7,052 nt of DNA from a virus (lineage: Duplodnaviria > Heunggongvirae > Uroviricota > Caudoviricetes). The stretch is from the IMG/VR virus record IMGVR_UViG_2585427745_000012. One strand, 5' to 3'. This document shows positions 1 to 7,052 of this stretch, in pieces. A program made the position numbers and the translations under genes. The notes beneath the pieces are model-generated. The model ran no database searches, was not told the DNA's origin, and saw only the letters and a program-made list of their open reading frames with translations. The stretch's first letter is position 1; every line of letters begins with the position of its first letter.

Positions 1-495
<495 letters not shown>

Positions 496-2862: not shown

Positions 2863-3052
2863 GGTTCTTTCCACCATCTGAAAAATAATTCTTTAAAATA
2901 CCTGACATGTAATACAGAAAAAACACAAAACCATACCTTAAATAAAAACCTCATCATCAAGCAGATATGCATGGATAAACTACAAGACGAGATATAAACC
3001 ACCCTGCATTTAAATAAACAATAAACAACATCAGAAAAATAATTCTGCTCTA

Positions 3053-3082
3053 TGGTTTACATTCAAAAATATCATTTATACT
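3053..3082 (+). promoter_or_regulatory. Candidate sigma70 promoter for the 111-aa cargo ORF
   Basis: TTTACA (3056-3061) and TATACT (3077-3082) lie in an AT-rich leader about 40 bp upstream of ATG 3123. The 15-bp spacer is short; the alternative -35 TGGTTT (3053-3058) gives an 18-bp spacer. Sequence-only prediction. Confidence 0.3.
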
Positions 3083-3122
3083 TTTCAGAACATCACCAGC
3101 AAGACATAAACAAGGAAACTAA

Positions 3123-3458
3123 ATGAAGTGGATTGTGATTGATACAGTTATCCAGCCATCATGCGGAATATCTTTTTCAGTCATATGGAGTAAAATAAAA
3201 TTAATAATCTGGTATCAATCGGATGCTTTCTTACCTCCTGAAAGTATATTTACACTGACTCACACAGGTATCATGCTCAATAACAAAGTGCTACCTGTAA
3301 CCATTTACAACGTAGCACCATTCAATAAAACATTCTGGAATTTAATCAAAAACAGCCAGGAATGTCCTACAAATACAGATAACGTATTGAATGAATGCTT
3401 TAATAACCGTTGCACTCTGCAAATATGTCCTTATGGACTAAAACAACAAAGTCCATAA
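3123..3458 (+). CDS. Hypothetical protein, 111 aa, AT-rich moron-like gene, function unknown
   Basis: ATG at 3123 preceded by a good SD (AAGGAAA, 4-5 nt spacer). AT-rich codon usage differs from the flanking phage genes. It is transcribed opposite to the late operon. The C-terminus carries 5 Cys. No family recognised by eye. Confidence 0.45.
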
Positions 3459-3462
3459 GGAG
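3428..3462. repeat. Perfect 12-bp inverted repeat (TCCTTATGGACT / AGTCCATAAGGA) with an 11-nt loop, overlapping the stop codon of the 111-aa ORF
   Basis: Read directly from the sequence. It could form a stable hairpin on either strand. Confidence 0.6.
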
Positions 3463-3475
3463 TTTACTCACATCT

Positions 3476-3514
3476 GACAAAATCAATATAAACAGCCCCT
3501 CCGGAGAGGGGCTG
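3476..3514 (-). terminator. Candidate intrinsic terminator for minus-strand transcription
   Basis: A 9-bp GC-rich stem (3493-3514, CAGCCCCTC/GAGGGGCTG, loop CGGA) is followed on the minus strand by the U-rich tract TGTTTATATTGATTTTG. There is no T-run after it on the plus strand. Confidence 0.45.
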
Positions 3515-3905
3515 GAGAGTGGCGCTATGTGCCATTGCATGGTGCCGGGTGCCTCCCGGTGAATTCAGTACCAGCACCTGAATCCGCGATTATCCCATAT
3601 ACCTACTCGCTGATTGCCCCTCCGCACAGGGGGATTCACCATGCCAGTTTCTTTTAACAAACTCCCCGCAAACCAGACAACAGTCAACCGCCTGAATTGT
3701 GAAGTATTTAAAAATTTCTCCCGCTAACTGATACCCGGCTAACAGTCTGGCGTTTTCTTTTTCAGCAACGGGAAAGCAACAACCACCACACCCGCCACCA
3801 GCACACCGTCAGCCAGCACTGACATTATCCGGCTGCTGCAATGCCACTCACAAAAACAGTAAGCAATCACTTTTTACCGTAACAAGTGATAATCCAGATA
3901 TGTAT

Positions 3906-4259
3906 CTACCCCAGATGAGTAATCCGAAGTTCATCCATACCACAGGTCCTGGCTATTCTGTTGTACTCCTGAACAAGAGCAAATAATTCTGAATTAGCAA
4001 CCATGAACTCATCGCAAACCCTCTGAATAGCATCACTATTCAGAATAATAACGTCTCTTCCCGAAAGACGATCAGGAGTACAGAACAAAACTGTCAAACG
4101 GCTGAAGGCCTTTGCTCGTGCTGCATTGACTATATCAATACGCTGCCTAAGGATGAAACACCCCGACGCCTCATCAATATTCACTCTACCCACACCATAT
4201 GAATGATAAATATTTAATGCTGAAAAAACCATTAGACCGTATAACAAACACTCAATCAA
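3906..4259 (-). CDS. Hypothetical protein (about 108-117 aa), cargo gene in late-operon orientation immediately downstream of the tRNA cluster
   Basis: The ORF opens at TTG 4259-4257; the first in-frame ATG is 4232-4230; stop TAG at 3908-3906. There is no convincing SD for either start. It shares strand and position with stxA in Stx phages but shows no resemblance to Stx. Function unknown. Confidence 0.35.
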   Translation of the reverse strand: MIECLLYGLMVFSALNIYHSYGVGRVNIDEASGCFILRQRIDIVNAARAKAFSRLTVLFCTPDRLSGRDVIILNSDAIQRVCDEFMVANSELFALVQEYNRIARTCGMDELRITHLG

Positions 4260-4372
4260 TACTTAACAGAACTTTTATTTTTGACAAACATATAATATTT
4301 TCAACAATATCCTGAGCCAGGTATATTTCAGTATAAGGCTCTGCCGGAAGGAATCTGGAAGAATGAATATAG

Positions 4373-4446
4373 CGCGCTGTACTGGATTCGAACCAGTGAC
4401 CGATTGCTTAGAAGGCAATTGCTCTGTCCGGCTGAGCTAACAACGC
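4373..4446 (-). tRNA. argO: tRNA-Arg (anticodon UCU), argO-like
   Basis: Manual fold on the minus strand: acceptor GCGTTGT/ACAGCGC, D-arm GCTC-AGCCGGACA-GAGC, anticodon arm ATTGC-CTTCTAA-GCAAT (anticodon TCT), T-arm ACTGG-TTCGAAT-CCAGT. CCA is not encoded. Confidence 0.9.
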
Positions 4447-4459
4447 TGAATACCGATAA

Positions 4460-4539
4460 TGGACCGCCATCGGGGACCCGCCCCCGCACCAACAACCCTG
4501 TTATCGCGTCGTCTGCTCTTCCTGATAAGCTAATGGCGG
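4460..4539 (-). tRNA. tRNA-like element, probably degenerate or non-canonical (argN-position), between the two canonical tRNAs
   Basis: Perfect 7-bp acceptor pairing (CCGCCAT ... ATGGCGG) followed by T-CCA; the D-arm (TAGCTTATCAGGAAGAGC) is similar to that of the neighbouring tRNA-Arg. The anticodon arm and T-loop (GCGGGT) are non-canonical and no clean cloverleaf could be drawn. Confidence 0.3.
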
Positions 4540-4546
4540 TTTGTGA

Positions 4547-4658: not shown

Positions 4659-4685
4659 AATAAAAAACCCGCTCGGCGGCGGGTT
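4659..4685 (-). terminator. tR'-like intrinsic terminator of the short pR' transcript
   Basis: On the minus strand, stem AACCCGC / GCGGGTT with loop CGCCGA is followed by TTTTTTATTG, about 65 nt downstream of the predicted pR' start. Confidence 0.6.
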
Positions 4686-4716
4686 GTAGAAACTCTTCTA
4701 ACGTCAGGCATAAAAG

Positions 4717-4760
4717 GCCCATCGTTATGACGAATTTACCACAGATTCCGGAAAAATCAA
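4717..4760 (-). promoter_or_regulatory. Late promoter pR'-like with pause/qut element
   Basis: On the minus strand: -35 TTGATT (4760-4755), 16-nt spacer, -10 TAAATT (4738-4733), then CGTCATAACGATGGG. The TAAATT -10 and the downstream AACGAT element mirror lambda pR' and its sigma-dependent pause signal as I recall them. It lies 6-30 bp downstream of the Q stop. Confidence 0.55.
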
Positions 4761-4765
4761 CCTTG

Positions 4766-5587
4766 TTACCTAGTTACCTTTTTTAACTGCCGCTCAGCCC
4801 ATGCTTCTTCAATATCAAACCGGGTCACCAGCGCATCATAGAATTTCTTAACTGTTTTTTCCCATGACGCGCGTGTTATCTGGTTTGTCACCTCGCATAT
4901 AGCATTAAATGCCTCCGTTGATGGTAGTCTTTCATAGCCACGACCACCACAACGCTGGCAGTCTCTGATAACAGGCATACCACGTTTTACCGACTCTTCA
5001 CGGTGAATGGCGACACCACGCCCACGGCAATCCTTACAGGCGGTGGAAACCTCACCCTTTCCGCCACACTCCGGACAGGCAACTTTTACCACCTCCCTGA
5101 CTTTTTTCCATTCTTCCCAGTAAGACGGATACACACCTTTCGTACACTTTGCCCATACCGGCGGCTTACCATCCGGATACTGGACCTTGTTTGTAAAAAC
5201 TATGCTTTCAATAAATTTTTCCCCATAGCAACAAGGGCACTGCTTTTTACTCGCTGCGCTGCGGGCATAATCCTCAAAAGCGTACGAAGCCATAATGCGC
5301 ATCACTACCGGTTTTATTTCTGCCGGAAGTTTTCTCAACGCCGCCACACGATCGCACCGACTGAGTGCATAATCTGCCAGTAATTCTGTTGCCCGCACCC
5401 TGTCATTCATACTGATGCCCATTTTCCCCAGGAACGCAGAAAAACCCATCTCAGCCCGATTCTGTGTCATGCCCTGCGCGGCCATCACATCAGTGATACT
5501 CAGCGCATCTTTTGACGTTGAGGCCGATGCATCGGTCAGGCCAGGGGATTTTGGGGAGTAGTATTTCGGTAAATCTTCCAGTTTCAT
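4766..5587 (-). CDS. Q: Late-gene antitermination protein Q (lambda-type Q family) with an enlarged zinc-finger region
   Basis: 273-aa product. Blocks YSPKSPGLTD, TDVMAAQGMTQNRAEMGFSAFLGK, ASYAFEDYARSAA, CQRCGGRGYERLP and the C-terminus WEKTVKKFYDALV...KVTR align with lambda Q as recalled. Its position (after rusA, before pR' and the tRNAs) is canonical. The start ATG overlaps the rusA stop (ATGA). Confidence 0.8.
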   Translation of the reverse strand: MKLEDLPKYYSPKSPGLTDASASTSKDALSITDVMAAQGMTQNRAEMGFSAFLGKMGISMNDRVRATELLADYALSRCDRVAALRKLPAEIKPVVMRIMASYAFEDYARSAASKKQCPCCYGEKFIESIVFTNKVQYPDGKPPVWAKCTKGVYPSYWEEWKKVREVVKVACPECGGKGEVSTACKDCRGRGVAIHREESVKRGMPVIRDCQRCGGRGYERLPSTEAFNAICEVTNQITRASWEKTVKKFYDALVTRFDIEEAWAERQLKKVTR

Positions 5588-5958
5588 TTTTTGACCTGCT
5601 CTTCATGCATTATGGGGTAAATCTTCACCCCCAGACGTCCACCAGATACTGGCTGACCACGAACGATATTGATTTCATCAAACTGCTCATCGTCCATTAA
5701 CACTCCCGCATGCGTCAGCGCATCCAGCGGTGCTTTCAGGATATTGTCCAGGTCGCGACGACGCTTATCCGGTGGCTCTGCAATCACCTTTATCGCCAGC
5801 CTTCCGGACAGGCTTAATTTCAGCCGCTGCTGGCGAACAATAAGCGCCACAGCCCGGCGATAACGCTTTCCCTCCTCCGAGATAAAATATGTGCTGCCAC
5901 GGCGTCGCCAGTAAGTGTTCACCGTCGGCGGGTAAGGTAAAACCAAATCTATGAGCAT
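5584..5958 (-). CDS. rusA: RusA-family Holliday junction resolvase (crossover junction endodeoxyribonuclease)
   Basis: 124 aa. The N-terminus LPYPPTVNTYWRRRG...SEEGKRYR and the PDKRRRDLDNILKAPLDALTHAGVLMDDEQ block carrying the catalytic acidic residues resemble E. coli RusA. Good SD (AGAGGTGA) before ATG 5958. Confidence 0.85.
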   Translation of the reverse strand: MLIDLVLPYPPTVNTYWRRRGSTYFISEEGKRYRRAVALIVRQQRLKLSLSGRLAIKVIAEPPDKRRRDLDNILKAPLDALTHAGVLMDDEQFDEINIVRGQPVSGGRLGVKIYPIMHEEQVKK

Positions 5959-5970
5959 CAGTCACCTCTT

Positions 5971-7052
5971 TTACCCAAGCACGCCAGTTGCAAAGGCGTG
6001 ATCAAGAAAACGAAAAATTAAATCAACCTGAGAACCATGCTTTTCTTCGAACGCCAGAGGATCCGCATGAAGCTCGTTGTGATGCTCCCGACACAGCGGT
6101 AGCGTGAAAATATCGTGAGATTTTGTCCCCATTCCGCCCTGACCATGACCAATCAGGTGATGGGGATCGTCGGCTGGCTTACCACAACACGCACACGGCT
6201 GTGTCTTCACCCAGCGTGTGTATTTCTCGTTAACCCAGCGGCGACGTTTAGGTCGTTTCATGAAAGATTCCGGAGACTCAGGATCAACGGCAATGCTGAC
6301 CACCGTCTCTTCCTGTGGCGGGTTTTGCTGGTGGGCGTGAGGCAGCGGCGCAAGATTTTTTGTGCGCTGCTTCAGTATGCTGGTGGCGGTCTGCTCTCCC
6401 GGTACGATGTCGCTTTCACGGTACATTGAGCGGATTTTTTCCGCACGCAACCCCAGCGAACGACGTAATACCGCTTCCGGTAGCGCGTCCGCCACCTGAT
6501 TGCGGACCGCCCACCAGGATAATTCAGCCAGCGATAATTCCCGTTCCTGCGAGCCATTCATTGCATGGCGTATGACGTCAATCATCCATGCAGACAGGTT
6601 TTGGTGAGCAAGTTGCCCGAGTGATTCGGAGGTCTGGTCGCGCAGCTGGTTGTCGCAGTGCCAGCACAACACCATTGCGCCGGTACCATAACGGTGAATG
6701 ACGGTTTCACTGTGGTGATAATCGCCGTGTTGCCACTGGCAGGATTTAACATGGCGCAGTAACCAGTCAGACAATGCGCCAGCGCCACCAGCAGCACGAA
6801 TCACTCGTTCGTCGCTGAAAAATGGCAGTAATGATTTATCCTCCGCCAGCGGCTGGCGAACGGCAGGAACGACCCCGGACGGCAGATTACGCATGCTTTT
6901 CGGTTCCGGCTCCACCAGTACCCGGGTATTGTGGAATACCGGCATGGATTCACGGCCCGGCTTAACGATCACCAGCCCGAGTTCCGGTACCAGAACAGGT
7001 CGAAGTAATACCCGCACGTTACCTCCAGATGCGTTGCTGGAATGTGCGGGAC
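5971..7052 (-). CDS. Lambdoid prophage DUF968-like protein with C-terminal HNH-type Cys/His motif (YdfU-like); 5' end beyond the window
   Basis: The frame is open to the window edge with no stop upstream of the reported GTG at 7017. The C-terminal region CACCGKPADDPHHLIGHGQGG...CREHHNELH is HNH-like. It sits immediately upstream of rusA as in other lambdoid prophages. Stop TAA at 5973-5971. Family assignment is from memory. Confidence 0.6.
   Translation of the reverse strand, partial: PAHSSNASGGNVRVLLRPVLVPELGLVIVKPGRESMPVFHNTRVLVEPEPKSMRNLPSGVVPAVRQPLAEDKSLLPFFSDERVIRAAGGAGALSDWLLRHVKSCQWQHGDYHHSETVIHRYGTGAMVLCWHCDNQLRDQTSESLGQLAHQNLSAWMIDVIRHAMNGSQERELSLAELSWWAVRNQVADALPEAVLRRSLGLRAEKIRSMYRESDIVPGEQTATSILKQRTKNLAPLPHAHQQNPPQEETVVSIAVDPESPESFMKRPKRRRWVNEKYTRWVKTQPCACCGKPADDPHHLIGHGQGGMGTKSHDIFTLPLCREHHNELHADPLAFEEKHGSQVDLIFRFLDHAFATGVLG

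Follow-up and report, generated by a model that had tools for sequence, protein, structure and literature searches.

What fills the AT-rich interval between the tRNA genes and the nanS-p-type esterase gene of this prophage, and does it encode a new system? The preliminary description of the window (the whole stretch of 7,052 nucleotides that was analysed) saw there a cargo cassette in the stx-equivalent moron site and the best candidate for an undescribed system, and that interpretation is partly supported. The backbone and the composition are as described, but the contents are not new. The region is very probably the iraL locus of a potB-type E. coli lambdoid prophage, and consists of a mosaic of four small elements lying between Q and the tRNAs on one side and the esterase and lysis genes on the other (Table 1).

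Table 1. Features of the late-regulatory region in phage order, with window coordinates.
Feature	Position	Strand	Evidence or remark
DUF968 gene	5971-7017	-	Backbone
RusA gene	5584-5958	-	Backbone
Q-type late antiterminator	4766-5587	-	PF03589 Antiterm, 182 bits; upstream boundary of the late operon
Candidate tR' terminator	4666-4685	-	GC-rich hairpin of 7 pairs with T-run (TTTTATTG tail); just 3' of Q
tRNA, CAT anticodon	4547-4622	-	ARAGORN; Rfam tRNA, 72.5 bits; RefSeq tRNA-Ile, ileZ-type
tRNA-Arg (TCT)	4372-4446	-	ARAGORN; Rfam tRNA, 68 bits
orf92, conserved 92-aa phage protein	3906-4184	-	phrog_2873; GTG start at 4184
DUF3927/TciB-like small hydrophobic membrane peptide, 43 aa	3739-3870	-	PF13064
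STnc100-family (PasD-related) prophage sRNA	3484-3673	-	Rfam RF02076
STnc100 intrinsic terminator	3493-3514	-	9-pair stem, TTTATATT tail; found independently of the Rfam match
iraL, IraM-family RssB anti-adaptor, 111 aa	3123-3458	+	110/111 identical to CFT073 IraL
iraL putative -10 (TATACT, 3077-3082), transcription start (3090) and 33-nt leader	3077-3122	+	RACE match; -10 read from the sequence
nanS-p-type sialate O-acetylesterase gene, 658 aa	901-2877	-	Pfam DUF1737, SASA and DUF6645; downstream boundary of the slot

The minus strand carries the late-regulatory region of a lambdoid prophage, and the window is read in phage order on that strand. The described succession of Q and tRNAs, variable slot and nanS-p-like gene was confirmed with Pfam and ARAGORN, all on the minus strand. 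In identical genomes the RefSeq annotation labels the Q gene as antitermination protein and the esterase gene as SASA family carbohydrate esterase. The Q product has two Antiterm-domain stretches together with a sub-threshold match to a DnaJ-type CXXCXGXG zinc finger at residues 171-218. The position of this strong hairpin just behind Q makes it a candidate for tR'. A weak Rfam Trp_leader match (E=0.084) overlaps this hairpin stretch downstream of Q (4659-4765, minus strand), and probably reflects merely the shape of a leader followed by a terminator.

Between the two called tRNAs lie 100 nt (4447-4546, minus strand) that correspond to the middle tRNA-Arg of CFT073 in diverged form: the sequences of the acceptor, D and T arms are kept, and the anticodon-arm region is replaced and slightly longer. 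Phage mEp460_ev081 has the same version of this element. Neither ARAGORN nor Rfam calls a tRNA there; a tRNA pseudogene is one possible reading of the element, an unusual tRNA-like structure another. At the other end of the window, a fragment of an IS3-family transposase (window 1-493, with rve domains in the plus-strand ORF 7-453) adjoins the prophage 3' of a DUF1378 gene. Most otherwise identical genomes match from position 494 onward, and the whole window is covered only by strain 3059 (NZ_CP103559.1).

The slot itself (2878-4372) is AT-rich over about 1.5 kb, as described, with 39.3% GC compared to 54.7% in the esterase gene and 52.4% in the right flank; the lowest-GC stretch of 1495 nt in the whole window begins at 2842. 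The AT-richness is uneven, since iraL and its upstream region have 29-34% GC and the intergenic stretch next to the tRNAs has 31%, while the sRNA and the DUF3927 gene have 52-55%. The high non-coding fraction also holds, with proteins encoded by only about 50% of the slot, or 63% coding when the sRNA is counted. Promoter-like sites are not in excess in the slot (6, against 4.5 +/- 1.8 in shuffled sequence). All 1495 bases were found by BLASTN at 100% identity in at least 16 complete E. coli genomes, and the slot is covered to at least 80% in 863 of 5426. Many E. coli isolates of human origin have the identical slot. The annotations in the matching genomes are "anti-adapter protein IraM" and "DUF3927 family protein".

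Both of the ORFs on which the idea of new cargo was built are present, at 3123-3458 (plus strand, 111 aa) and 3906-4259 (minus strand, 117 aa from a TTG), but neither is without a recognisable family: the former is IraL (NF007393) and the latter matches phrog_2873. The reported hairpins and mini-ORFs correspond to a full-length STnc100 with its terminator.

The plus-strand ORF passes the curated NCBIfam model NF007393 (IraM) with 162.4 bits against a cut-off of 121, over residues 1-110 of 111. It also has a full-length match to phrog_4407 and, in a search of PDB sequences, matches the solved IraM structure 8twd with E=2.2e-32. The protein is 63% identical to K-12 IraM over 107 aa, and the sole amino acid change relative to CFT073 IraL is at residue 65, which is alanine here and valine in CFT073. 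Pfam has no match for this ORF, a null result that is misleading because NCBIfam, PHROGs and the PDB all identify it. The likeness extends beyond the gene, as the window is collinear from 4664 to 2705 with CFT073 1342263-1344219, in the potB prophage, at 96.9% identity. The claim of an undescribed system therefore fails: the cassette matches the well-characterised iraL locus of CFT073, an Rfam sRNA family and a Pfam family, and a match to a characterised locus is what the preliminary description had itself named as grounds for giving the idea up.

In CFT073 the homologue of IraM is IraL, whose gene lies on the potB island (Hryckowian et al., mBio 2014, PMC4045071); this protein was shown experimentally to bind RssB and to stabilise RpoS (PMC4045071). 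From the literature on this 99%-identical protein, the IraL encoded here is predicted to be an anti-adaptor that stabilises RpoS. The published 5'-RACE sequence of iraL (PMC4045071) matches positions 3090-3121 at 30 of 32 bases, where no match is expected by chance, and therefore places the start of transcription at 3090; the resulting leader of 33 nt carries two substitutions relative to the published sequence. The leader agrees with the published promoter construct, which spans "-100 to +33" (PMC4045071). The hexamer TATACT, 7 nt 5' of the start, would be the -10 element. The iraL promoter is a sigma-70 promoter that is active in log-phase lysogens (PMC4045071). Strong expression on prophage induction, as proposed for the cargo, does not fit such a gene, which is opposed to late transcription and has its own log-phase promoter.

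iraL is widespread in E. coli. Copies of at least 95% identity occur in about 1415 of the 5426 complete genomes, and 3330 have only a copy of 60-80% identity, the K-12-type iraM being at about 71% at the nucleotide level. Identities across these genomes are bimodal (at least 95% or about 71%), mirroring the iraL/iraM dichotomy already published for E. coli (PMC4045071). The same gene is also carried by induced temperate phages such as vB_EcoS-640R1.

The STnc100 sRNA matches RF02076 over model positions 1-206 of 206, with 132.4 bits against a gathering score of 47 (E=7.7e-30). The two primers used for STnc_100 qPCR in PMC12370729 have exact matches in the window (3624-3643 and 3551-3570). STnc100 lies 75 nt downstream of stx2 (PMC12370729), and is related to the PasD sRNAs, which lie 3' of Q and directly 5' of the sialate esterase gene (Zhu, Shabalina and Storz, 2026 preprint). 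Its reported position relative to stx2, Q and the esterase makes STnc100 a landmark of the backbone, and from this landmark it follows that the stx-equivalent position proper is the interval of 700 bp between tRNA-Arg and the sRNA, and that iraL, which lies between the sRNA and the esterase gene, is a second insertion. The equation of the slot with the stx moron site is thus right in that the site is variable, as seen in phi296, JLK-2012 and stx2 phages, and too broad in that only these 700 bp have the exact position of stx.

RefSeq genomes have a PGAP pseudo "hypothetical protein" CDS on the plus strand at 3529-3657. As this CDS is contained within the STnc100 match in antisense orientation, it was rejected as a gene, and the annotation is probably spurious. 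The related prophage of E. coli STEC1585 has a tolA-like gene and, in the corresponding late region, about four segments that resemble STnc100 (3537-3783, 5473-5689, 5769-6001 and 6023-6199 in its coordinates).

The DUF3927 peptide matches PF13064 with 95.6 bits against a gathering cut-off of 25, and phrog_1470 ("TciB-like") with E=7.8e-13. The RefSeq protein WP_000562553.1 is identical in SCU-172 and CFT073, two distant strains. Its start lies 35 nt beyond the end of orf92. Phage JLK-2012 pairs the TciB-like gene with a TerB-type tciA, unlike the window, which has no TerB-like ORF. A literature search on tciA, tciB and DUF3927 returned only unrelated Trypanosoma papers.

The minus-strand ORF of 117 aa contains a shorter gene. 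Its phrog_2873 match (233.9 bits) pairs residues 10-117 with profile positions 1-108 of 108. Other E. coli prophages have homologues with about 70% nucleotide identity, and there the annotated protein has 92 aa, with a GTG start preceded by an AGGAG Shine-Dalgarno sequence and equivalent to GTG-4184 in the window. In four other lineages (L005, which is that of E. coli STEC1585, L008, L009 and L010) the 25-codon N-terminal extension is closed by stops and the 92-codon core is intact despite them. Distant relatives of 91-95 aa align only from about position 26 of the ORF. The 117-aa ORF is best read as a maximal-ORF over-call, and the conserved gene as one of 92 codons. The full ORF from its TTG and a 108-aa product starting at Met10 were both rejected as the real protein in view of the upstream stops and of where the homologues start.

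orf92 is under purifying selection. In three lineages the 92 codons align without gaps, the differences are distributed about 20/20/42 over the three codon positions, and dN/dS is 0.21-0.31. No disruption of the 92 codons was seen in the window, CFT073 or those copies of this lineage that were inspected, and 1111 E. coli genomes share the DNA at 99% identity or more. PGAP calls no orf92 in the identical genomes, in phage mEp460_ev081 or in any copy of at least 95% identity among the matches listed; the diverged alleles that are annotated have a stronger Shine-Dalgarno sequence. The ribosome-binding site in the window is weak (GGTGTGGGTAGA-GTG, compared to GGCAGGAGTAGA-GTG in L008 and L010).

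A search for an own promoter of orf92 or STnc100 gave only weak consensus matches, no more than expected by chance. The spacer that separates orf92 from tRNA-Arg, with 31% GC, contains overlapping divergent promoter-like hexamers at 4277-4308 (TTGACA-16-AACAAT on the plus strand and TTGAAA-16-AAAAAT on the minus strand). Of these, the minus-strand pair could be a promoter for orf92, DUF3927 and STnc100, with the reservation that such matches are no commoner here than chance.

The orf92 family, whose full-length members have 91-95 aa, is a small one: 1.84 billion proteins yielded 21 cluster representatives. AlphaFold, given an alignment of nine sequences, predicts a two-helix hairpin (pLDDT 88) with helices at residues 3-33 and 50-81 and a conserved TPDR loop between them. 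Structure prediction, one of the proposed checks, thus gave a confident model, and the Foldseek and profile searches gave no assignment: Pfam has no match for the 117-aa ORF or for the distant members, the best hit of the profile against PDB sequences is the nucleoid protein GapR at a non-significant E=0.06, and Foldseek of the model against the PDB and viral structures returned nothing at E<=0.001, only generic helical or coiled-coil hairpins. Some members of the family lie in the post-Q region of lambdoid prophages. Other relatives lie directly 3' of a YdeO/GadX-like AraC regulator, 3' of a GerE/LuxR-type HTH gene, or near PapB; the AraC regulator in the E. coli STEC1585 prophage is directly upstream of an unannotated orf92 homologue. 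This proximity to regulators hints at a role as regulatory partner without establishing one.

Could the slot still hold an undescribed system, for toxicity, exclusion or defence, that prophage induction turns on? The moron site is genuine, and holds stx and tciAB in relatives; two of the four elements, orf92 and DUF3927, are without assigned function; and the PHROGs label for the DUF3927 family reads [quoted passage not shown]. The largest and AT-rich part of the cassette, however, is IraL, which has a different published function and is transcribed against the late operon. PADLOC assigned none of its families to IraL, orf92, DUF3927 or the esterase, and neither fold nor sequence searches matched orf92 to toxins. 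The parts of the cassette also occur separately in other phages, and so do not constitute one co-inherited system. Such a system is highly improbable. A different possibility is that the half of the slot next to the tRNAs (3674-4372) is decaying: it would be what is left of an orf92-tciA(TerB)-tciB module after loss of tciA, with orf92 now silent in this lineage. Strain C311 has the order orf92, TerB pseudogene and DUF3927, JLK-2012 has tciA ahead of tciB, and the window has no TerB gene; the weaker ribosome-binding site compared to L008 and L010 and the missing PGAP calls in copies of at least 95% identity among the matches listed are consistent with silence of orf92. Decay is difficult to reconcile with 92 intact codons in the window, CFT073 and the inspected copies, with near-identical DNA in more than a thousand genomes, with a cross-lineage dN/dS of 0.2-0.3 that indicates purifying selection, and with a DUF3927 protein that is identical in two distant strains. 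This explanation appears unlikely.

The residual novelty of the slot is confined to orf92. Its product might be a small regulatory partner, such as a modulator of adjacent transcription factors or nucleoid proteins, and not structural or lysis-related. Its diverged homologues adjoin YdeO/GadX-like AraC and GerE/LuxR-type HTH genes or lie near PapB, its modelled helical hairpin is typical of small protein-binding modulators, and the weak, sub-threshold profile matches are to GapR. Yet no regulator is adjacent in the window, CFT073, C311 or ETEC4075, the GapR matches are not significant, the fold matches are to generic coiled-coil hairpins with none at E<=0.001, and the sample of contexts is very small, making this role improbable on present evidence. 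A broader guess, that orf92, alone or with the DUF3927 peptide, is an undescribed small effector of lambdoid moron sites, for example one that modulates transcription regulators of host or prophage, is speculative and quite unlikely.

The reading that the slot is the iraL locus leads to the following model. In the lysogen, iraL would be transcribed from its own sigma-70 promoter, starting at 3090 and running opposite to phage late transcription. IraL would then sequester the adaptor RssB and block the delivery of RpoS to ClpXP, increasing sigma-S in exponential growth, as the literature describes for the 99%-identical protein. Since IraL raises sigma-S in growing cells, iraL would serve lysogenic conversion, acting on the stress physiology of the host, and would not be a toxin or defence gene. 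The STnc100/PasD sRNA and its terminator, on the phage strand 5' of the esterase gene, take the backbone position that they have just after stxB in Stx phages. Upon induction, Q-modified RNA polymerase would proceed from PR' through tR', the tRNAs, orf92, DUF3927 and the STnc100 terminator, with orf92 and DUF3927 presumably co-transcribed as part of the late operon. Late transcription would then run antisense over iraL into the esterase and lysis genes, and antisense interference between the two may be expected.

The slot is already known, comprising the iraL locus, a known phage sRNA and two tiny phage genes, and is ordinary, not a new system. The result is mainly corrective. The AT-rich "orphan" cargo that stands out most in this prophage has been published as a lysogenic-conversion gene tuning the general stress response of the host, and is therefore no target in a search for new toxins or defence systems. 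In addition, the RefSeq annotation of more than 1,100 E. coli genomes systematically lacks a 92-aa phage gene that is conserved and under purifying selection.

The closest known counterpart is the iraL locus of CFT073, which has the same neighbours in the same orientation within a lambdoid prophage, with 96.9% identity over the 1.96-kb locus and a shared promoter and transcription start region (30 of 32 bases of the RACE sequence). CFT073 differs in having an IS200 between Q and the tRNAs, in having three called tRNAs where the window has two, and in its truncated esterase gene, which is intact with 658 aa in the window. The K-12 protein IraM belongs to the same NF007393 family, and both have the conserved N-terminal RssB-binding region and the C-terminal Cys motif, but K-12 iraM adjoins icd/ycgX, unlike the prophage-borne iraL. 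IraM is a Mg2+-starvation anti-adaptor, and the condition that induces it differs from that of IraL; it binds both domains of RssB, whereas IraL binds only the N-terminal domain (PMC4045071).

The sRNA resembles the STnc100/PasD sRNAs in its full-length model match with terminator and in its location 3' of Q and the tRNAs and 5' of the sialate esterase gene, and differs in that the iraL insertion separates it from that gene. The order on one strand of Q, terminator, tRNAs, cargo, STnc100 and nanS-p-type esterase is of the same type as the moron site of Stx phages. Comparison of this slot across related prophages, a check proposed in the preliminary description, showed that the contents vary. 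Phage phi296 has the tRNAs and the sRNA region followed by NanS, with no added cargo; JLK-2012 has tciA-tciB, with tciA ahead of tciB; and Stx phages have stx2AB, 75 nt upstream of STnc100 (PMC12370729). The frame shared by the window and the stx and tciAB sites is Q, tR', tRNAs, variable cargo, STnc100, nanS-p and lysis genes. The window has neither stx nor a TerB-type tciA, and its cargo between the tRNAs and the sRNA consists of orf92 and DUF3927. It also differs in having a second insertion, iraL, on the other side of the sRNA, and the two insertion points around STnc100 help in reading the moron sites of Stx-like phages.
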